NCBI GenBank assembly: GCA_963782155.1 | Contig: CAWAIZ010000001.1 | Coordinates: 31,878 to 95,877, forward strand | Length of the DNA stretch: 64,000 nt | Direction of reading: 5' to 3' | Source: an uncultured Actinomycetota bacterium | Lineage (GTDB): Bacteria; Actinomycetota; Actinomycetes; Propionibacteriales; Nocardioidaceae | Shown: positions 40,303 to 51,355 of the stretch, piece by piece | Layout: every line of letters starts with the position of its first letter | Numbering within the stretch: position 1 is the first letter of the stretch | Made by a program: the position numbers and the translations under genes | The notes under the pieces: generated by a model | Database searches by the model: none | Told to the model about the DNA's origin: nothing | What the model saw: only the letters and a program-made list of their open reading frames with translations

Positions 40303-42120
<1,818 letters not shown>

Positions 42121-42236: not shown

Positions 42237-42863
42237 TCAGATCGCGGGTAGCTGCAGGTCGTGCCGCTGTCGGCGGGCCTTGGTGGCGAGATACGCCGCA
42301 TTGGTCTCGTTGAGGTGTACGCCGGTCGGCACCCGGGCAGCCACGTCGACGCCCAGAGCCCGGAGCTGCTCGACCTTGTCCGGGTTGTTGGTGAGGAGGA
42401 CGACACGGCGTACGCCGAGCGCGGCGAGCATCTGTGCCGCCACCGTGTAGTCACGCTCGTCGGCTCCGAACCCGAGAGCCAGGTTGGCGTCATAGGTGTC
42501 CAGGCCGTCGTCCTGCAGGGCGTAGGCGTCGAGCTTGGCGTAGAGGCCGATGCCTCGGCCCTCCTGGCGGAGGTACAGCACGACGCCGCCCGCGGTGGCC
42601 ACCCGCTCCACGGACTCGCGCAGCTGCGGTCCGCAGTCGCAGCGGTCGCTGCCGAACACGTCGCCGGTCAGGCACTCGCTGTGCAGGCGGACGAGCGTGG
42701 GGCTGTCGTCGCGCCGGCTGACCAGGCGGCGTTCGCCGAGACGGAAGGCCAGGTGCTCGCCACCGTCCACGAGGCCGTGGAAGGTGAAGGCGCGGGCCCG
42801 GGCGGCGTACCCGTCGCTGAAGCGCAGCGGGATGTCGACCTGGGTGCGGATCGTGGCGGTCAT
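42237..42863 (-). CDS. GTP cyclohydrolase II (RibA-like, stand-alone)
   Basis: VRLHSECLTGDVFGSDRCDCG, YLRQEGRGIGL, LLTNNPDK. Confidence 0.92.
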   Translation of the reverse strand: MTATIRTQVDIPLRFSDGYAARARAFTFHGLVDGGEHLAFRLGERRLVSRRDDSPTLVRLHSECLTGDVFGSDRCDCGPQLRESVERVATAGGVVLYLRQEGRGIGLYAKLDAYALQDDGLDTYDANLALGFGADERDYTVAAQMLAALGVRRVVLLTNNPDKVEQLRALGVDVAARVPTGVHLNETNAAYLATKARRQRHDLQLPAI

Positions 42864-43552
42864 CAGTCCTCGTAACGGTCCGAGAGTGCGTAGCGGAGGA
42901 GCACCACGTCGCCGAGGCGCTGGACGTCGGCGAGGGCGGCGCGCCGGTCCTTGTTCCAGGGGAAACGGCCGTCCTCGACGAACCGCGGCGCCCGGGAGTC
43001 GCCGACGAAGAACGGCGCGACCACGAGGTGCAGCTCGTCGGCCAGCCCGGCGGTCAGGAACTGCGTGTGGATCGTGCCGCCGCCCTCGACCATCAGCCGG
43101 CGGGTACCGCGGGCGTGGAGGTCCTCGACCAGCCCCTGCATCCGCACCTTCGGGCCGCCGTCGACGATGGTGGCGACGTCTGCGAGGCGGCGGCGCGCCT
43201 CGTCGTACGCCGGCCGGGCGCAGTACACGAGCTTGTCCGTGTCCCCGGTGGAGAAGAACCGAGCGGACGGGTCGAGCCGCGCGCCATTGGTGACCGTCAC
43301 CTTGGTCGGGGTCGGCGGTAGCCCACGGGAGGTGCGCTCGTCGCGACAGGCCTGGCTGCGCACGAGCAGCCGCGGGTTGTCCTGCCGCACGGTCTGGGCC
43401 CCGACCAGGATCGCGTCGCTGGCGGCCCGCACGGTGTCGACCCGCTCGAGGTCGGCGTCGTTGGAGAGCAGCAGACGCTGGCTCGACGCGTTGTCGAGGT
43501 ACCCGTCGATCGAGATGCCGCAGCTGAGCAGGATGTACGGACGGTCAGCCAT
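42863..43552 (-). CDS. RibD C-terminal-like reductase (no deaminase domain)
   Basis: SCGISIDGY, DAILVGAQTVRQDNP, LMVEGGG, LADELHLVVAP. Confidence 0.9.
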   Translation of the reverse strand: MADRPYILLSCGISIDGYLDNASSQRLLLSNDADLERVDTVRAASDAILVGAQTVRQDNPRLLVRSQACRDERTSRGLPPTPTKVTVTNGARLDPSARFFSTGDTDKLVYCARPAYDEARRRLADVATIVDGGPKVRMQGLVEDLHARGTRRLMVEGGGTIHTQFLTAGLADELHLVVAPFFVGDSRAPRFVEDGRFPWNKDRRAALADVQRLGDVVLLRYALSDRYED

Positions 43553-44417
43553 GTGCGACCACCACCTCGCGCTGGTGCTGCGCGGCCGTAGCGGGGCGAC
43601 GTACGAGGAGCAGGGCCGCGCCGGGCAGGGCGGCGGCGAAGGCGAGCACGCCGTACGCCGTCGCGACCGACGTCCCGGTGGCGGCCCCGAGCCCCACGAG
43701 GGCGAAGACCCAGGCGGCCGCTCCCTCGCGAGGCCCCCAGCCCGCGATGTTGATGGGGAGGGCGGCCGCGACGAGTACGACGAACGCCAGCGCCGCGAGG
43801 GTGCCTTTGTCCGCCTCGACGCCCACGGCGTGCGCCGCGACGAGGAAGACGCTCGCGTGGCCCGCGGCGGCGAAGGCTGAGAGAGCAAGCACGGCGGGGA
43901 CGGTCTCGGCGTCGAGGTACTTGCGGTCCGTGAGCACGAGCACGAGGCCGGCGAGGAGGACGATGCCGCCGGCCGCGCTCGCGGCGAGTACGGGAGTGGA
44001 GGGGGCGATGTCCGCGGGCCAGGCGACCAGCACGACCAGCAGTCCCACCGCCACCTGCACCGCCTGGCCCATCACCCGCTCGACCACCACGGACCCGACC
44101 GTACGGTGCGCGATCGCCCGATGGACGTCGCCGACGATCCCGCCGGGCAGCACGGAGTTGAGGAACTGGGAGCGGTAGTACGCCGCCACGGCCTCGCGAC
44201 TCGTGATCGTGATGCCCGCCGCGCGAGCGACGAGCCGCCAGCGCTGCGCGGCACACAACGTGCTGCCCGCGACCAGCACCAGCGCGGCCACGACCGACCC
44301 CGGCCCCACCGCGCGCAGACCCGCCACGAAGGGCTGGGTACCCACCCGCCACGCGAGTACCCCAAGCACCGCCGCGCCCGCCGCGACGCGCACCAGCCCC
44401 CACCACCCTCGGTTCAT
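43545..44417 (-). CDS. Lysylphosphatidylglycerol synthase TM-like (UPF0104/flippase-like) membrane protein
   Basis: RWRLVAR, YYRSQFLNSVLPGGIVGDVHRA, LPINIAGWGPRE. Confidence 0.82.
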   Translation of the reverse strand: MNRGWWGLVRVAAGAAVLGVLAWRVGTQPFVAGLRAVGPGSVVAALVLVAGSTLCAAQRWRLVARAAGITITSREAVAAYYRSQFLNSVLPGGIVGDVHRAIAHRTVGSVVVERVMGQAVQVAVGLLVVLVAWPADIAPSTPVLAASAAGGIVLLAGLVLVLTDRKYLDAETVPAVLALSAFAAAGHASVFLVAAHAVGVEADKGTLAALAFVVLVAAALPINIAGWGPREGAAAWVFALVGLGAATGTSVATAYGVLAFAAALPGAALLLVRRPATAAQHQREVVVAHG

Positions 44418-44505
44418 GCCCACCTCGCTCCTTGTCCACCCCTACGGCGGCGAGTACGGGAGGGTTCAAGCGGCCGCCCCACGCCGGTCGAGCAGGCTCT
44501 CGTTG

Positions 44506-44693
44506 CTCGCTGGTTGAGGAGGTTGCGCATCGCTCTCGCTGGTTGAGGAGGTTGCGCATCCCTCTCGCTGGTTGAGGAGGTTGCGCATCCCTCTCGCTGG
44601 TTGAGGAGGTTGCGCATCGCTCTCGCTGGTTGAGGAGGTTGCGCATCGCTCTCGCTGGTTGAGGAGGTTGCGCAGCAACCGTCTCGAAACCCG
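44506..44693 (+). repeat. 29-bp tandem array (5 full copies + a sixth that continues into a complete REP element)
   Basis: CTCGCTGGTTGAGGAGGTTGCGCATCSCT at 44506, 44535, 44564, 44593, 44622; the unit at 44651 extends to ...GCAGCAACCGTCTCGAAACCC. Confidence 0.95.
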
Positions 44694-44722
44694 CCGACCG
44701 ACCCGCCCACCGCCCCCCGTCT

Positions 44723-44802
44723 CGGTGGTCGAGGTGCCAGGAGCCCGCGTCGTCTCGGTGGTTGAGGTGCGAGGAGCGCCAGCGACGAGCCTCGAAACCA
44801 CC
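44723..44802 (+). repeat. Additional REP-like copies upstream of the HNH gene
   Basis: GGTGGTCGAGGTG... and GGTGGTTGAGGTGCGAGGAGCGCCAGCGACGAGCCTCGAAACC. Confidence 0.65.
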
Positions 44803-44894
44803 ACCCAAAGGTACTTCCAACAATCTCTCAGAACCCTTGTGGACAAGGGCTTCTGGCGCCCACCACTGTCGGTGGTCGATGCTTGGATCGTCTC

Positions 44895-46246
44895 ATGAGC
44901 ACGGCACCCGAAGAGCGGTATGAGGTCGGAGACCTCGACCCCGCCGCCGTGCTCGCCCTGGCCGCACGCGTCGAGGTCGAGTCCCGGCGGATCGAGCTAC
45001 GGCGCCTCGAGCTGGCCCACCAATGGGCCGTCCTCCACCCCGCCACCGCCGAGACCGGCGTAGAAACCCCCGACGGCCCCGGTCTCGGCGTCCTGGACGC
45101 CGACGAGACACTAGGAGGCCCCGGCACCCCGGCCGTGGCGGCCTTCGCACCCGAATCCCTCGCCACCGCGATGGGAGTCTCGCCCGGCTCGGCACGGAAC
45201 CTGATCGCCGACACCCTCGACCTGACCCACCGCCACCCGAAACTGTGGAAGCGGGTACGCCGCCTCCAGATCCCCGCCTGGCAAGCCCGCCGCGTCGCCC
45301 AACAGACCCGACGCCTCCCCCACGCCGGTGCCCGCTGGGTCGACGACCAGCTCGCCGACCGCATCGGCTGCGGACCCGTCATCACCGACCGCCTCGTCGC
45401 CCAAGCCGCCGCCCAGTACGACCCCGAAGACCACCAACGCCGCGAAGAACAAGCCCAGTCCTCAGCCGACGTCGACCTGTCCCACCCCCAGCCCGGCCAG
45501 TACGCCGGCACCAGCGACCTCACCGCCCACGGCGACACCCCCACCCTGCAAGCGTTCTACGACCTCCTCTGCGCCATCGCCCACCAGCTCCACCAAGCCG
45601 GCGACACCGCCCCCTCGGAGAACGCAAGATCAAGGCCCTCGCCGTCATCGTCGCCCTCCTCACCGGCCAGCACACCCCCGACCCCAGCGACCTCGCCGGT
45701 TCGCTCGGCGGCCTCGGCGACCTCGCCGACCTCGCTGCTGCCGCCCGCAAGCGGCCGAGCAAGGTCAAGGTCTACCTCCGCGTCGACGCCGACGACATCG
45801 CCGGCGACATCGACACCCACCCCGGCGACGACGCCCTCACCGTCGGGCACGTCGAGAAGCTCGGCGCCGCCACCCTCGCCAAGATCCGGTCCTGGGTCGG
45901 CCACCACCAGGTCGTCATCCAACCCGTCCTCAACATGGCCCGACGTGACGCCGTCGACCACCACGACCCACCACCCTGGATGCGCGACCTCCTCACCCTC
46001 CGCGACGGCCACTGCGTCTTCCCCGGCTGCACCCGCGACGCCCGCTCCTGCGACCTCGACCACATCACCGCCTACCACCCCGACGGCCCACCCGGACAGA
46101 CCCGACCCGACAACCTCGCCCCCCTCTGCCGACGCCACCACCGCGCCAAGACCAGCGGACTCTGGCGCTACACCCGCACGCCCGACGGCACCTACCAATG
46201 GCACGGACCCCACGGCTCGAAGTCCACTACGACGCCGCTGGAGTGA
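44895..46246 (+). pseudogene. DUF222 + HNH endonuclease (REP13E12/Rv1128c-like), split by a 1-bp frameshift near 45610
   Basis: N-half in frame of 44895 (LAHQWAVLHP, FAPESLA, LIADTLDLTHRHP); C-half in frame of 45023 (RKIKALA, RDGHCVFPGC, CDLDH, NLAPLCRRHHRAKT). Confidence 0.85.
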
Positions 46247-46296
46247 GCAAGGTGGGGTTGTCGCCCTGAGTCCCGCCGCTCACCTCGAACATCCCC

Positions 46297-47313
46297 TCAC
46301 CTTCCGACCGCCTCCAGCACCGCAGACAGCTCGGTGGCGGTGCGGTCCCAGCCAGTCAGCGTCGTACGACGGTCGGCGGCGCGGACCTGGAGGCGGGTGC
46401 GCAGCGCCCGGTCGGTGAGCCAGGAACGCAACGCCGAAGAAAGGGCAGACGGATCGTCGGCCGGCACAAGCAACCCCGGCAGCGGTGTACCCAGCGCCTC
46501 ACGTACCCCGCCCACGTCGGAAGCCAGGACCGGGACGCCGCGGGCGAGGGCCTCGGTGGCGACCATCCCGTAGGTCTCGTGGCGCGAGGGCAGCACGACG
46601 AGGTCCGCGGCGGCGTACGCCGCGGAGAGCGCCGGGCCGGTCAACGCGCCCGCCAGCGTGACGCGGTCGTCGAGCTCGGCGTGGTGCAGCGAGGACCACA
46701 GCTCGGTTGCGTGGGCGGCGTCGACGGAGGCACCGACGAGGGTCCAGGCCCATGAGAGATCGGCCAGGGACTCCAGCGCAGAAACCAGCACATCGTGGCC
46801 CTTGACCGGCGTGATCGACCCGACCGACAGCAGCCGGTGCCCGGTCGACGAACCCTCGGCGAGGGTGCCCTTGTCCGTACCCGGCGGGACGACGTGGAGG
46901 CGCTCGTGCGGCAGCGAGTACGTCGACGCCAGCCAGTCGCGCGTCCACCGGCTCGTGCACACCACAGCCGCGGCAGCGGACAGCGCGTCGCGCTCAGTCG
47001 AGAAGAGTGGGTCCGAGTAAGGCTCCGGCACCCCGACCGGCAGGTGCACCAGCACCACCACGCGCAGCCGGTCCCGCGCCTCGACCAGAGCAGCAGGAGC
47101 GACCGAGCCCACCAGTCCGTCGACGACCACGGTCGCGCCCGAAGGGATGTCCGCGAGCACTGACGCCAGAGCCACGGACGTCGTCTCCACCACCGACACC
47201 TCCTGGCCGAGCGCCTGGAGCGCCGCGGCCACGCGGACGTCGTAGACGTTCCCCCCGCTCGGCCGAGCGGGATCGGAGAGGCCGGTCGGGCCGACCAGGT
47301 GCAGGACGCTCAC
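46297..47313 (-). CDS. Glycosyltransferase family 4
   Basis: [45 protein letters not shown]. Confidence 0.92.
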
Positions 47314-47717
47314 GTCGGCGTCAAGGTCCGCTCGAAGCTGGCCCAGGCGACGTGCGACTCGTGCAGGGTCACCACGATCTTCCCGAGCTGCGCGCCCCCC
47401 GGACCCAGATCACCGGACAGCGCACGCGAAGCCAGCCGGTCCGCGACCACCCGGGCCAGCATCTCGGTCGAGGTGTTCTGCCCGGCGAAGTCGTCCTCGT
47501 CGTCGAGATTGCGGTAGTTCAGCCGCTCCAGCACCTCCCCCAGCAGGGTCGAGGCGCGGCCGATGTCGACCAGCACGCCGTCTTCGTCCAGCCGCGGACC
47601 CACGAACGTCGCGTCGACGACGTACGTCGCCCCGTGCAGCCGCTGGGCCGGCCCGAACATCTCTCCGGTGAACGAGTGGGCCACCATCATGTGGTCGCGC
47701 ACGGTGACGGAGAACAT
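47310..47717 (-). CDS. 6-pyruvoyl-tetrahydropterin synthase / QueD-like protein (COG0720; FGPAQ-type variant)
   Basis: [40 protein letters not shown]. Confidence 0.88.
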
Positions 47718-48694
47718 CAACACCCCTCGTAGGTGATCGTGTGGCACAACGCGGGCACCGACCCGTCGGCCAGCTTCGGCATCAGGTCCGGCAGCTCCCC
47801 GAAGCGCGACTCCCCGGTCAGCAGCACGTCGAAGGCCGGATCATCCAGCAGATCGAGGGCCAGTGCCAAGCGTTCGGCGTGAGTACGCCGGCTCCGTCTC
47901 GCCGCGGCGACCTCGCCGACCTGGCTCGCGCGGACGGCCAGCCGCCGCGAGTGGAAGGCGCCGCCGAGCGAGACGGTGACCGCCGCATCGCCGTACCAGC
48001 TCAGCTCCAGCACCTCCCCGTCCGGCGCGAGCAGGTCGATCGAGGTCTGCAGCCCGGCCGACGTGCCGGACGTGTGCACCACCACGTCGAGCTCACCACC
48101 CGCGTCGGCCGGCGAGGAGTACGCCGTCCCCAACGAGGCCGCGACCGCCGACCGCGACGCGTCCACGTCGACCAGCGTCACGGTCACGCCCGGAATCCCC
48201 GCGAGCAGCCTGGCGACGCAGCACCCGACCATCCCCGCACCGACCACCGCGACCCGGTCACCGAGCAGCGGCCGTGCGTCCCAGAGGGCGTTCACCGCCG
48301 TCTCGACCGTGCCCGTGAGCACCGCTCGGGAGGCCGGCACGGAGGTCGGCACCACGGTCACCGCCGAGGCCGGCACGACGTACTCGGTCTGGTGCGGGTA
48401 CAGGCAGAACACCGTCCGGCCCACCAACGAGGACGGGCCCTCCTCGACGACGCCCACGTTCAGGTACCCGTACTTCACCGGGCCGGGGAACTCGCCCTCC
48501 TGGAACGGCGCGCGCATCGCGGCGTACTGGCTCGCGGGCACCCCACCCCGGAACACCAGCGTCTCCGTACCCCGGCTCACGCCCGAACGCACCGTGCGCA
48601 CGAGCACGTCGTCGGGCCTGATGGGCGGCAGCGTCACCGACCGCACCTCGCCGCGACCGGGCTCGGTCACCCAGAAGGCCTCGGCCTGTCCCAC
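47717..48694 (-). CDS. Zinc-binding alcohol dehydrogenase (MDR family)
   Basis: [28 protein letters not shown]; AGGAGG SD before GTG 48694. Confidence 0.88.
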
Positions 48695-48777
48695 GCCCAC
48701 CCTCCTGAACCGTCTCGACACGGGATCCGTAGTCATCGAAGGTATCCGTCCAAGACGCCTGGTGACACGGAGGAGCG

Positions 48778-50934
48778 GTGCGACGCGTTCACGTCGGCCC
48801 CTTCGGGCCCGCTGACCTGGTCACGCTCACCCGCGCCCTGGTCGGCGTCGGCGTCGCGGTGCTGGTCGTCCGCTCGTTCGGGCACCACGTGCCCACCGCG
48901 CTCCTCGTCACGCTCGCCGCCGTCGCGCTCGTCCTCGACGCCGTGGACGGCTGGGTGGCCCGCCGTACCGGCACCGTCTCCCTCTTCGGCGCCCGCTTCG
49001 ACATGGAGACCGACGCCGCCCTGCTGCTGGTCCTCAGCACGTACGTCGCCGGCGACCTCGGCCTCTGGGTGCTCGCCATCGGCCTGGCGAGGTACGTGTT
49101 CCTGGCCGCCAGGCTGCCGCTGCCCTGGCTGCGGGGCCAGGCGCCGCCCCGCCCCTGGTGCAAGACCGTGGCGGCCCTGCAGGGCATCGTCCTGGTCGTC
49201 GCGGCGAGCGGACTGCTCCCCGACACCGTCGCCACCGCGCTGCTGCTGGTGGCTCTGGCCCTGCTCACCGAGTCGTTCGCCCACGAGGCCTGGGACCTGT
49301 GGCGCGCCCGCCTGCCGCACCAGCCACGCCCGCGGGCTGCGCTCGTCAGCGGCGTGGTCGCCGTGCTCATCGTCTGGGCGGCGCTGGTCGCGCCCGACGA
49401 CATCGCGTCACTGTCCCCCGCCGCATTCTTGCGGATCCCCCTCGAGGGCCTCGTGCTCGTCGGCCTCGTGCTGCTCCTCCGCCCGCGCGTCGCGACGTGG
49501 GTGGGAGGTGTCGCTGGCCTCTTCCTCGGAGTGCTCACCCTGGTCAAGGTGCTCGACATCGGCATCTCGGTCGCGTTCGCGCGGCCCTTCGACCCGCTCG
49601 GCGACCCGGTGTACGCCGGCGCCGGCGTCAGCTTCCTGCGCGACGCCCTCGGGACGCCGAACGCCTACACCGTGTCCGTCCTCGCCGTGCTGGTCATGCT
49701 CGCCGTACTGGTGGTGGTGCCGTACGCCGTGCATCGCGCGGTCCGGTTCGCCCGCGGTCACCGCCCGGTCGCGGCTCGCCTGGTGCTGGCCCTTGCCCTG
49801 GTGTGGGGCGGCTGCGCGGTCGCCGGGGTCCACGTGGGTTCCGGTGAGCCCGTCGCGGCCGCCACCGAGCTGTCCCTGGCCTCGAGCCACGTCGCCGACG
49901 TCCGGCAGAACCTCCGCGAGCGTGCCGAGCTGGCCGAGGCGCTTAAGGACGACCGCTACGCCGACGTACCCGCAGACCGCCTGCTCCGGGCCCTGCGCGG
50001 CAAGGACGTGCTCCTGGTCTTCATCGAGAGCTACGGCAAGGTCGCCCTCGACGGGCTGCCGACCTCGCCCCAGCTCCGCGCCACCGTCGACGAGGACACT
50101 GCCCGGCTCGAGCGGGCAGGGTTCGGCTCCCGCAGCGCTTTCCTGACCTCTCCGACGTTCGGGGCGATGAGCTGGTTCGCGCACTCCACGCTCCAGTCCG
50201 GCCTGTGGATCGACAACCAGGGCACCTACGACCTGCTGCTCCACCACGAGCGGCTGACGTTGAGCAGCGCATTCCTGAAGGCGGGCTGGCGGTCGGTCGG
50301 GATGATCCCCGCCGACACCGAGCCGTGGCCGGAGGGTGAGGACTTCTATCGCTGGCAGCACCTCTACGACCTCACGAACCTGGACTACGAGGGCCCGCGC
50401 TTCGGCTACGGCCGGATGCCCGACCAGTACGCCCTGGAGTCCTTCCGCCGGCTCGAGCTGGACCGGCCGAACCGGGAGGCAGTGATGGCCGAGATCGACC
50501 TCGAGTCCAGCCACAACCCCTGGGTGCCGCTGCCGCGGATGGTCGACCCCGCGGACCTCGGCGACGGTTCCGTGTTCGACGGCATGGAGGACGACGGCCC
50601 GCAGCGCGACGAGGTCTGGACGAGCTCGACGCGGGTGCAGGCGGCGTACGTGAGGTCGCTCCAGTACTCCCTCGACGCGCTCACCTCGTTCATCGAGCAG
50701 AGCAGCGACGACGACCTGGTCGTCATCACCCTCGGCGACCACTGGCCGGTCACCACCGTGTCCGGCACCACCCCGGGCCACGCCGTGCCGATCAGCGTGA
50801 TCGCCCGTGACCCGAAGGTGCTCAGGCACATCGACGACTGGCAGTGGCAGCGCGGCCTCCGACCCGACGACGACGCGCCGGTGTGGCCGATGGATGCCTT
50901 CCGCGACCGGTTCCTGGACGCCTTCAGTCGTTAG
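48778..50934 (+). CDS. CDP-alcohol phosphatidyltransferase fused to a membrane sulfatase/alkaline-phosphatase-like domain
   Basis: DAVDGWVARRTG...GARFDMETD CDP-AP motif; FIESYG, SPTFGAMSWFAHSTL, SSHNPW, LGDH in the C-terminal domain. Confidence 0.85.
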   Translation: MRRVHVGPFGPADLVTLTRALVGVGVAVLVVRSFGHHVPTALLVTLAAVALVLDAVDGWVARRTGTVSLFGARFDMETDAALLLVLSTYVAGDLGLWVLAIGLARYVFLAARLPLPWLRGQAPPRPWCKTVAALQGIVLVVAASGLLPDTVATALLLVALALLTESFAHEAWDLWRARLPHQPRPRAALVSGVVAVLIVWAALVAPDDIASLSPAAFLRIPLEGLVLVGLVLLLRPRVATWVGGVAGLFLGVLTLVKVLDIGISVAFARPFDPLGDPVYAGAGVSFLRDALGTPNAYTVSVLAVLVMLAVLVVVPYAVHRAVRFARGHRPVAARLVLALALVWGGCAVAGVHVGSGEPVAAATELSLASSHVADVRQNLRERAELAEALKDDRYADVPADRLLRALRGKDVLLVFIESYGKVALDGLPTSPQLRATVDEDTARLERAGFGSRSAFLTSPTFGAMSWFAHSTLQSGLWIDNQGTYDLLLHHERLTLSSAFLKAGWRSVGMIPADTEPWPEGEDFYRWQHLYDLTNLDYEGPRFGYGRMPDQYALESFRRLELDRPNREAVMAEIDLESSHNPWVPLPRMVDPADLGDGSVFDGMEDDGPQRDEVWTSSTRVQAAYVRSLQYSLDALTSFIEQSSDDDLVVITLGDHWPVTTVSGTTPGHAVPISVIARDPKVLRHIDDWQWQRGLRPDDDAPVWPMDAFRDRFLDAFSR

Positions 50935-50944
50935 GGTGCCCCGG

Positions 50945-51355
50945 ATGGCACGCGTGGTGATGGTCGGGCTGGTCGACGAGCGCGGCTGGGTCCTGCTGCA
51001 GGAGCGTGACTCCTTCGCGCCGGTCGACCCCGACCGCTGGTCGCTCGTCGGCGGTCGCGTGGAGCCCGGTGAGACCGACGCGGTCGCTGTCCTTCGAGAG
51101 CTCGAGGAGGAGACCGGGCTGCGCCACCCCCTGACCTCTCTCGGCGTGCACGACGTCGCCTGCTCCGTCCACGGCCGGGACACCGTCGCCCTGTTCGCCG
51201 CTCGTACGTCGGCCACCGACGCCGACGTCGTGTGCGGCGAGGGTCGCCAGATCGTGTTCGTCGACCCCGCCGCGTCAGGCTCGCTGGACCTCACCGATCC
51301 CACCCGGGCGCTGCTGCCGGTCGTGCTGGCGGAGGTGCCCGACTCGGAAGACTAG
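50945..51355 (+). CDS. NUDIX hydrolase
   Basis: GGRVEPGETDAVAVLRELEEETG Nudix box. Confidence 0.9.
   Translation: MARVVMVGLVDERGWVLLQERDSFAPVDPDRWSLVGGRVEPGETDAVAVLRELEEETGLRHPLTSLGVHDVACSVHGRDTVALFAARTSATDADVVCGEGRQIVFVDPAASGSLDLTDPTRALLPVVLAEVPDSED

Follow-up and report, generated by a model that had tools for sequence, protein, structure and literature searches.

A conserved PTPS-IV gene cluster in an uncultured member of the Nocardioidaceae probably diverts an early riboflavin precursor into a sugar-bearing compound

Organization of the PTPS-IV locus

The gene cluster described here occupies positions 42237-50934 of a 64,000-nucleotide stretch of DNA, termed the window, from an uncultured Actinomycetota bacterium of the family Nocardioidaceae (assembly GCA_963782155.1, contig CAWAIZ010000001.1, 31,878-95,877 of the forward strand). 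The window has a GC content of ~72% and the closest matches to its proteins are from Nocardioides. The cluster is built around PTPS-IV, a T-fold protein related to PTPS enzymes, and constitutes a conserved set that probably diverts an early GTP-derived riboflavin precursor into a sugar-bearing compound. Open reading frame (ORF) listing combined with frame analysis of GC content at third codon positions (GC3) places six of its genes on the minus strand and one, in divergent orientation, on the plus strand. The reading frames of the module genes are backed by GC3, and every domain of the module was matched by Pfam and NCBIfam profile searches. On this combined evidence, the seven proteins named in a preliminary description of the locus, made from the sequence alone, are confirmed in the orientations given there.

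In the direction of transcription, the first half of the minus-strand genes encodes an atypical NAD-type oxidoreductase of the MDR fold (ADH-like; 47717..48736, 339 aa), identified by a weak ADH_zinc_N match and by its predicted fold, the PTPS-IV protein (47310..47717, 135 aa; PF01242, 81 bits; FGPAQ motif) and a glycosyltransferase of family GT4 with a GT-B fold (46297..47313, 338 aa; PF00534 and PF13692; Glycos_transf_1/GT4, 101 bits). The second half encodes a membrane protein with an LPG_synthase_TM domain resembling the flippase domain of MprF (LPG_TM; 43545..44423, 292 aa; PF03706, 89.8 bits), a RibD_C pyrimidine reductase (42863..43552, 229 aa; PF01872, 132 bits) and a stand-alone GTP cyclohydrolase II of the RibA type (GCH II; 42237..42863, 208 aa; PF00925, 194 bits; NCBIfam RibA subfamily, 258 bits). 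Genes within each half are translationally coupled, with start/stop overlaps of 1 nt between ADH and PTPS-IV, 4 nt between PTPS-IV and GT4, 8 nt between LPG_TM and RibD_C and 1 nt between RibD_C and GCH II. The plus-strand gene (48778..50934, 718 aa) is divergent from the ADH side across an intergenic region of 41 nt and encodes a fusion of a CDP-alcohol phosphatidyltransferase (CDP-AP; PF01066, 46 bits against a cut-off of 22) with a C-terminal half assigned from its predicted fold. All seven ORFs are intact, carry their conserved motifs and have normal GC3.

The two halves of the operon are separated by an insertion at 44424..46296, recognized by repeat analysis and comparison with paralogues, that lies on the plus strand and is described in the last section. 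Six co-oriented genes had been proposed previously; their common orientation holds, but they do not form a continuous run, the insertion having gone unmentioned. A search of Rfam at E ≤ 0.1 over 41.5-52 kb returned zero matches, and hence no riboswitch that would point to the ligand of the pathway.

Conservation of the module across actinobacteria

Conservation was assessed in 83 loci, comprising 80 actinobacterial loci retrieved with the pattern FGPAQxxHGA, which matched at least 591 species, two further loci and the window itself; homologues were tallied within 10 kb of PTPS-IV. An ADH-like gene and a GT4 gene accompany PTPS-IV in every locus (83/83 each), with constant order and strand throughout and GT4 directly downstream of PTPS-IV. 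Around this trio, LPG_TM is found in 79 loci and CDP-AP in 78, the latter usually divergent from the core across a short shared intergenic region, followed by a methyltransferase (69/83), GCH II (63/83), a creatininase-family gene (46/83), RibD_C (39/83) and the LtaS-like module that forms the C-terminal half of the window fusion (25/83). This co-occurrence over 83 loci is not due to chance. De novo clustering of the plausible ORFs around the module revealed no further widely conserved gene and, specifically, no cytidylyltransferase, phosphatase or acyltransferase; the lack of a dedicated cytidylyltransferase points to a common donor such as CDP-diacylglycerol.

PTPS-IV is distributed patchily: among 24 further genomes from the genus, 13 have it, as do 15 of the 301 that were drawn evenly from the whole phylum. 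A counterpart of the window lies in the SCO6650-SCO6655 region of Streptomyces coelicolor, where SCO6655 is the third RibA paralogue and where the PTPS, SCO6650 (PDB code 3D7J, "Uncharacterized protein"), is ~70% identical over its full length to the window protein (E = 4.8e-54 over residues 1-132), carries the FGPAQ signature and has the GCH II and RibD_C neighbours published for PTPS-IV. Streptomyces loci display the same synteny as the window, with ADH-PTPS-GT4, LPG_TM and a divergent CDP-AP. They differ in combining a Met-type GCH II with a creatininase-family gene, whereas the window combines a Tyr-type GCH II with RibD_C; in addition, a methyltransferase is missing from the window, where the CDP-AP forms a fusion with a module of five transmembrane (TM) helices and an LtaS/EptA-like domain and the operon is split by the insertion.

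PTPS-IV, the MDR oxidoreductase and GT4

In PTPS-IV, FGPAQ and LHGA stand in place of the CxxxHGH motif, and this replacement is kept in an alignment of 31 diverse members. The protein is without the Cys and one His of catalytic PTPS but retains the T-fold anchoring Glu, in the motif LHES, which would fit a substrate that keeps its 2-amino-4-oxo ring. Sequence comparison identifies the window protein, the sole PTPS of its genome, as an orthologue of SCO6650, whose zinc site is presumably missing. In four PTPS-IV proteins of 375-855 aa (P0121, P0123, P0128 and P0133), the only Pfam domains are two or three PTPS-IV copies in tandem; these proteins may be covalent pseudo-trimers of the T-fold. 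Ten long PTPS-IV-containing proteins inspected for domain fusions carry PTPS repeats only.

The FGPAQ signature, in contrast to CxxxHGH, CxxxxxHGH and ExxHGH, was used to define PTPS-IV in the AGeNNT study of 2017 (PMC5445326), which reported PF00925 and PF01872 as genomic neighbours and assigned no product; both families are found beside PTPS-IV in the window. A 2016 review (PMC5041015) links PTPS-IV to archaeal F420 synthesis, citing unpublished work. These two sources agree with the earlier statement that an FGPAQ subgroup of COG0720 clusters with ribA-like genes and has no known product. The PTPS-IV/GCH II/RibD_C neighbourhood is therefore already published (SCO6650, PDB code 3D7J; AGeNNT 2017) and the cluster is a known orphan; in the literature consulted, including 2026 reviews on riboflavin and on pterins, no report naming the product of a PTPS-IV cluster was found. 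The family is nevertheless large, with 709 representative clusters (50% identity) at E ≤ 1e-10, and has members in Streptomyces and abundant marine bacteria, yet no function has been reported for it.

The ADH-like protein is matched at the sequence level in its Rossmann half only. Inspection of the positions equivalent to the zinc ligands Cys46, His67 and Cys174 revealed that the invariant motifs GxSRGTE and KYGYL occupy the Cys and His positions, while GxGxxG and D190 are conserved. With these replacements, and with no ADH_N match, the label "Zn-dehydrogenase" applied previously does not fit this protein. Its AlphaFold2 model (pLDDT 90) nonetheless displays a full two-domain MDR fold, and a Foldseek search identified threonine, idonate, xylitol and sorbitol dehydrogenases (TM-scores of 0.73-0.78) as well as galactitol-1-phosphate dehydrogenase and TarJ as structural relatives, polyol and secondary-alcohol dehydrogenases being the closest. 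The nearest solved relatives of GT4 are sucrose-phosphate synthase, MshA, BshA and PimA, which act on small sugar or polyol phosphates. A PTPS-family protein beside a glycosyltransferase acting on a GTP-derived heterocycle is also a feature of the cyanobacterial and Chlorobium pterin glycoside pathways, although the first enzymes there are GTP cyclohydrolase I and a catalytic Zn/Cys PTPS, whereas the present cluster starts from GCH II and a reductase.

GCH II and RibD_C

The Cys triad and the KLDAYALQD motif of the window GCH II align with those of Escherichia coli RibA and of the RibBA encoded on contig 16 of the same genome, of which the window enzyme represents a second copy. The zinc-binding triad is present and a Tyr occupies the position of E. 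coli RibA Tyr105. The residue at this position is reported to decide the product, either 2,5-diamino-6-ribosylamino-4(3H)-pyrimidinone 5'-phosphate (DARoPP) or its formyl form (Spoonamore et al., 2006); by the same account, the Met-type paralogue of S. coelicolor stops at the formylamino intermediate. In the RibD_C protein, Pfam detects the RibD_C domain well above its cut-off and no deaminase domain. Among the NCBIfam models it fits TIGR01508, that of the archaeal-type DARoPP reductase, best (134.6 bits).

The identity of the residue at the Tyr105 position divides the actinobacterial loci in two. Those with a Tyr-type GCH II, 17 including the window, carry RibD_C without exception (17/17) and in no case a creatininase-family gene, while the 46 loci with a Met-, His- or Leu-type GCH II all carry the creatininase-family gene (46/46) and RibD_C in just seven. 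The split between Tyr/RibD_C and non-Tyr/creatininase is thus obeyed in 63/63 actinobacterial loci. As a universal rule it was rejected, since a marine locus has a Tyr-type GCH II (373 aa) beside a creatininase-family gene. The bacterial creatininase-family enzyme BrbF deformylates the formylamino intermediate to DARoPP (PMC9478397), and the pairing of Met/His/Leu-type GCH II with a creatininase-family gene is accounted for because deformylation of the BrbF type yields DARoPP. Both sets of entry enzymes would then converge on the same compound. The split also suggests which early intermediate to supply in assays. That the third RibA paralogue of S. coelicolor has a new function is stated in a 2026 review (PMC13151069), which supports that much only.

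RibD_C domains are frequent in this assembly, which contains thirteen matches; where the cluster of another genome has no RibD_C of its own, the reductase step need therefore not be missing.

Membrane-associated proteins

LPG_TM matches the TIGR00374 flippase-like domain weakly. Its identification as an MprF was considered and rejected, as the 292-residue protein comprises the TM domain only, with no C-terminal aminoacyl-phosphatidylglycerol synthase domain. The plus-strand fusion, one of five CDP-AP paralogues in the genome, consists of a CDP-AP domain of six TM helices (residues 1-180) in which the signature D54xxDGxxARx8Gx3Dx3D is intact, five additional TM helices and a C-terminal domain extending from residues 354 to 718. 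The number of helices (six plus five) and the positive-inside rule predict that the C-terminal domain lies outside the membrane, and stand-alone homologues of this module (~550 aa) have the same layout of five TM helices followed by an outer domain.

No PDB entry matches the C-terminal domain at the sequence level. In the AlphaFold2 model of the fusion (pLDDT 82), Foldseek relates this domain to LtaP, LtaS, GacH and MCR-1 (E of 1e-7 to 1e-5) and, at E of 5e-4 or worse, to sulfatases. Judged by its modelled fold, it is an LtaS/EptA-type phospho-head-group transferase of the alkaline-phosphatase superfamily. Residues E417, T460, D654 and H655 are invariant in 40 aligned sequences and are candidate catalytic residues. 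The protein had previously been described as a CDP-alcohol phosphotransferase-sulfatase fusion; a divergent CDP-AP fusion it is, while "sulfatase" is valid at the level of the superfamily only. The Pfam Sulfatase model (PF00884) reaches 14.7 bits against a cut-off of 25, and, instead of a C/S-x-P-x-R formylglycine motif, the sequence SPTFG, with an invariant Thr, occupies the region of the candidate nucleophile. With LtaS, GacH and EptA (MCR-1) the domain shares the fold and the arrangement of five TM helices plus an outer domain, and its conserved E, T and DH residues may be the counterparts of their catalytic residues. The donors used by these known enzymes are phospholipids on the outer side of the membrane, from which they take glycerol-phosphate or phosphoethanolamine. 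The window module differs from them in displaying no sequence-level similarity and in its fusion to the presumed synthase of the donor lipid.

The combination of a CDP-AP with a GT4 of the polyol-phosphate type recalls the synthesis of phosphatidylinositol and its mannosides (PgsA1 and PimA) and the MshA step of mycothiol synthesis. The cluster differs in that the alcohol is predicted to be GTP-derived and not inositol, in having no Ino1-type synthase and in its additional flippase-like and LtaS-like parts. The reading preferred here is that the cluster makes a glycoside of a pterin or 2-aminopyrimidine derived from GTP, which is linked through a phosphodiester to a lipid, flipped across the membrane and possibly handed on to an acceptor in the envelope; we hold this reading to be about as likely to be right as wrong.

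Loci outside actinobacteria

Outside actinobacteria, PTPS-IV has members in Myxococcota and Chloroflexota as well as in a large marine cluster. The five non-actinobacterial loci inspected retain RibD_C, the ADH-like gene and PTPS-IV, usually GT4 and often a methyltransferase, while CDP-AP and LPG_TM were found within 8-9 kb of the core in 0/5 of them. In two of these loci, both from Gram-negative bacteria, a membrane GT2 of 560-575 aa (PF13632; L104:6170-7894 and L105:6038-7717) is divergent from ADH-PTPS-GT4, at the position taken by CDP-AP in actinobacteria. As the membrane genes are absent from all five, the lipid part is a lineage-specific extension, and the simplest view of the universal product is that of a glycosylated heterocycle derived from GTP. 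The proposal made in the preliminary description, that a GTP derivative is glycosylated and becomes anchored on a lipid of the membrane or a polymer of the surface, fits the window itself, with its CDP-AP signature, flippase-like protein and LtaS/EptA-like domain, but its membrane part does not extend to the family as a whole.

The same loci raise the alternative that the pathway ends in a soluble glycosylated pterin or aminopyrimidine, methylated as well in other genomes, with a redox, UV-protective or signalling role like that of the pterin glycosides of cyanobacteria and Chlorobium, and that the actinobacterial membrane genes are only loosely coupled to it, for example in export. In favour of such a product, the core of RibD_C, ADH, PTPS-IV and GT4, with a methyltransferase or without one, is kept in loci from marine bacteria, Myxococcota and others that have neither CDP-AP nor LPG_TM, and the acceptors used by the closest relatives of GT4 are small, soluble and phosphorylated. 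Dedicated glycosyltransferases that make pterin glycosides are known (PMC5683033, PMC3546692). Nevertheless, CDP-AP and LPG_TM accompany nearly all of the actinobacterial cores, the former usually in the divergent arrangement seen in the window; the CDP-AP is an extra paralogue in this genome; and the membrane GT2 that takes its position in the two Gram-negative loci suggests a membrane step there too. On balance, a soluble end product appears unlikely for the window.

Relation to riboflavin, folate and queuosine synthesis

The genome carries ribD, ribBA and ribH together on contig 16 and folE elsewhere, while queC is absent from the whole assembly and neither ribE/ribH nor queC/queE is found in the cluster. 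The earlier conclusion that the cluster serves neither riboflavin nor queuosine synthesis, drawn from the absence of these genes from the cluster, is thus reinforced at the level of the genome. The separate ribD-ribBA-ribH set and folE, the lack of queC and the four other CDP-AP paralogues together indicate that the module is extra and dedicated. It comes in addition to the synthesis of riboflavin and folate and has no relation to queuosine. Contig 17 carries two loci for GTP cyclohydrolase I (213015-213546 and 217687-218217), one of which consists of two adjacent pieces in different frames and may be frameshifted or fused.

The early steps of archaeal and fungal riboflavin and F420 synthesis, in which a GTP cyclohydrolase is followed by an ArfC/Rib7-type reductase acting before deamination, resemble the cluster in the combination of GCH II with a deaminase-less reductase; the model of that reductase (TIGR01508) is the one that the window RibD_C matches best, yet below the equivalog cut-off of 186.45 bits. 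The likeness ends there, as no deaminase, lumazine synthase or riboflavin synthase follows in the cluster and the genome has its own rib operon elsewhere. It does, however, bear on the alternative that the module is a back-up supply of a known cofactor (riboflavin, F420/Fo or folate/pterin precursors), comparable to the archaeal ArfA/B/C or Sinorhizobium BrbF branch, with PTPS-IV filling a missing step. GCH II, the archaeal-like reductase and, in other loci, the creatininase-family deformylase all mirror the archaeal early riboflavin/F420 steps, and the unpublished F420 role mentioned in PMC5041015 would agree with such a function. This alternative is nonetheless very unlikely: ribD-ribBA-ribH and folE are already present, PTPS-IV is patchy within both the genus and the phylum, the cluster contains no ribH/ribE or Fo-synthase gene, and no cofactor route needs the invariant GT4 and MDR partners or the membrane transferases that usually accompany them.

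Proposed pathway

In the lipid-linked glycoside reading, GCH II would make DARoPP from GTP, and the deaminase-less RibD_C would reduce it to the ribitylamino form with the 2-amino group kept; these two steps rest on strong homology. The polyol-type MDR enzyme and PTPS-IV would then remodel the ribityl-phosphate side chain. One option is oxidation at C2', which would give the same keto-amine as GTP cyclohydrolase I, followed by ring closure to dihydroneopterin phosphate. DARoPP can be converted to dihydroneopterin phosphate, and RibA and TrpF of Chlamydia produce the keto-amine (PMC4161248). GT4 would attach a sugar, and CDP-AP, at the inner face of the membrane, would link the product by a phosphodiester bond to a phosphatidyl group whose most likely source is CDP-diacylglycerol. 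The MprF-like flippase-domain protein would move this lipid outward, where the fused LtaS/EptA-like domain may hand the phospho-head group to an envelope acceptor. Domain identities, folds and catalytic motifs are shown by the analysis, as are co-occurrence and the coupling of the genes; all substrates are inferred, and so are the final acceptor and, from side-chain remodelling onward, the order of the steps.

Several points weigh against this reading. Every substrate assignment is an inference and no product has been observed. The RibD_C protein scores under the equivalog cut-off of the DARoPP reductase model, and the remark on archaeal F420 synthesis, although unpublished, ties PTPS-IV to a different pathway. 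As a way of making a pterin, reducing a side chain in order to re-oxidize it would be a detour. Neither CDP-AP nor LPG_TM accompanies the core in any of the five non-actinobacterial loci inspected, so the core product may be soluble, with the lipid step secondary; the LtaS-like domain is nearby in only 25 of the 83 loci. In the window, moreover, the insertion splits the operon, so the downstream genes may be poorly expressed.

If the preferred reading is true, the first intermediate of riboflavin synthesis is a branch point that supplies an undescribed glycoconjugate and, in actinobacteria, would also supply an undescribed component of the membrane or envelope. In a more specific form of this reading, the product of the cluster would be a phospholipid of an undescribed class, with a glycosylated pterin or 2-aminopyrimidine polyol derived from GTP as its head group, and the fusion protein would make the lipid inside and, after flipping, use it outside as the donor for a new envelope decoration. 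Such a decoration would be analogous to the transfer of glycerol-phosphate by LtaS and GacH or of phosphoethanolamine by EptA. This form is doubtful at present. The fusion of a head-group synthase to an LtaS/EptA-like transferase predicts a cycle of making, flipping and transfer and suggests assays for it. To our knowledge, four features are new: the LtaS/EptA-type fusion with its predicted outside location, the MDR protein without zinc ligands, the split between Tyr/RibD_C and non-Tyr/creatininase loci, and the position of the membrane genes outside the universal core.

Insertion and flanking genes

The 1.9-kb insertion separates ADH-PTPS-GT4 from LPG_TM-RibD_C-GCH II, is intergenic and breaks no module gene; in related Nocardioides loci, the spacing between GT4 and LPG_TM is about 40 nt. 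It contains a tandem array of 29-nt units (44506-44680), ~6 copies without spacers that vary at one G/C position, after which come REP-like palindromic units (44506-44803 overall). The palindromic unit, of ~50 nt, is present in dozens of 100%-identical copies genome-wide, often as short arrays. The remainder contains a DUF222/HNH gene of the REP13E12-like type (44883-46246, plus strand) that changes frame near 45610-45625. Two paralogues of this gene, on contigs 3 and 8, share 81% and 72% DNA identity with it and are intact ORFs of 473 and 463 aa, respectively.

The REP arrays and the frameshifted HNH gene inserted between the operon halves, in a module that is often lost within the genus, could indicate that the cluster is decaying in this genome and that its product has been lost, the operon being split by mobile or repeat DNA. 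The intact state of all seven ORFs, with conserved motifs and normal GC3, and the location of the insertion between genes make this quite improbable.

A match to the Pfam family GT4-conflict raised a role in defence, which was rejected, as a PADLOC scan gave trivial Rossmann and NUDIX similarities only. Directly downstream of GCH II lies a gene for an AMP-binding, acyl-CoA synthetase-like protein (40303-42120, minus strand, 605 aa), which is not among the families that de novo clustering found conserved around the module. On the opposite side, a NUDIX hydrolase gene (50945-51355, plus strand) was rejected as a member of the module because it stands beside it in 1/83 loci, the window alone. Its product has weak NCBIfam similarity to dihydroneopterin triphosphate diphosphatase. 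The gene starts 11 nt past the stop codon of the CDP-AP fusion, with which it is probably co-transcribed.

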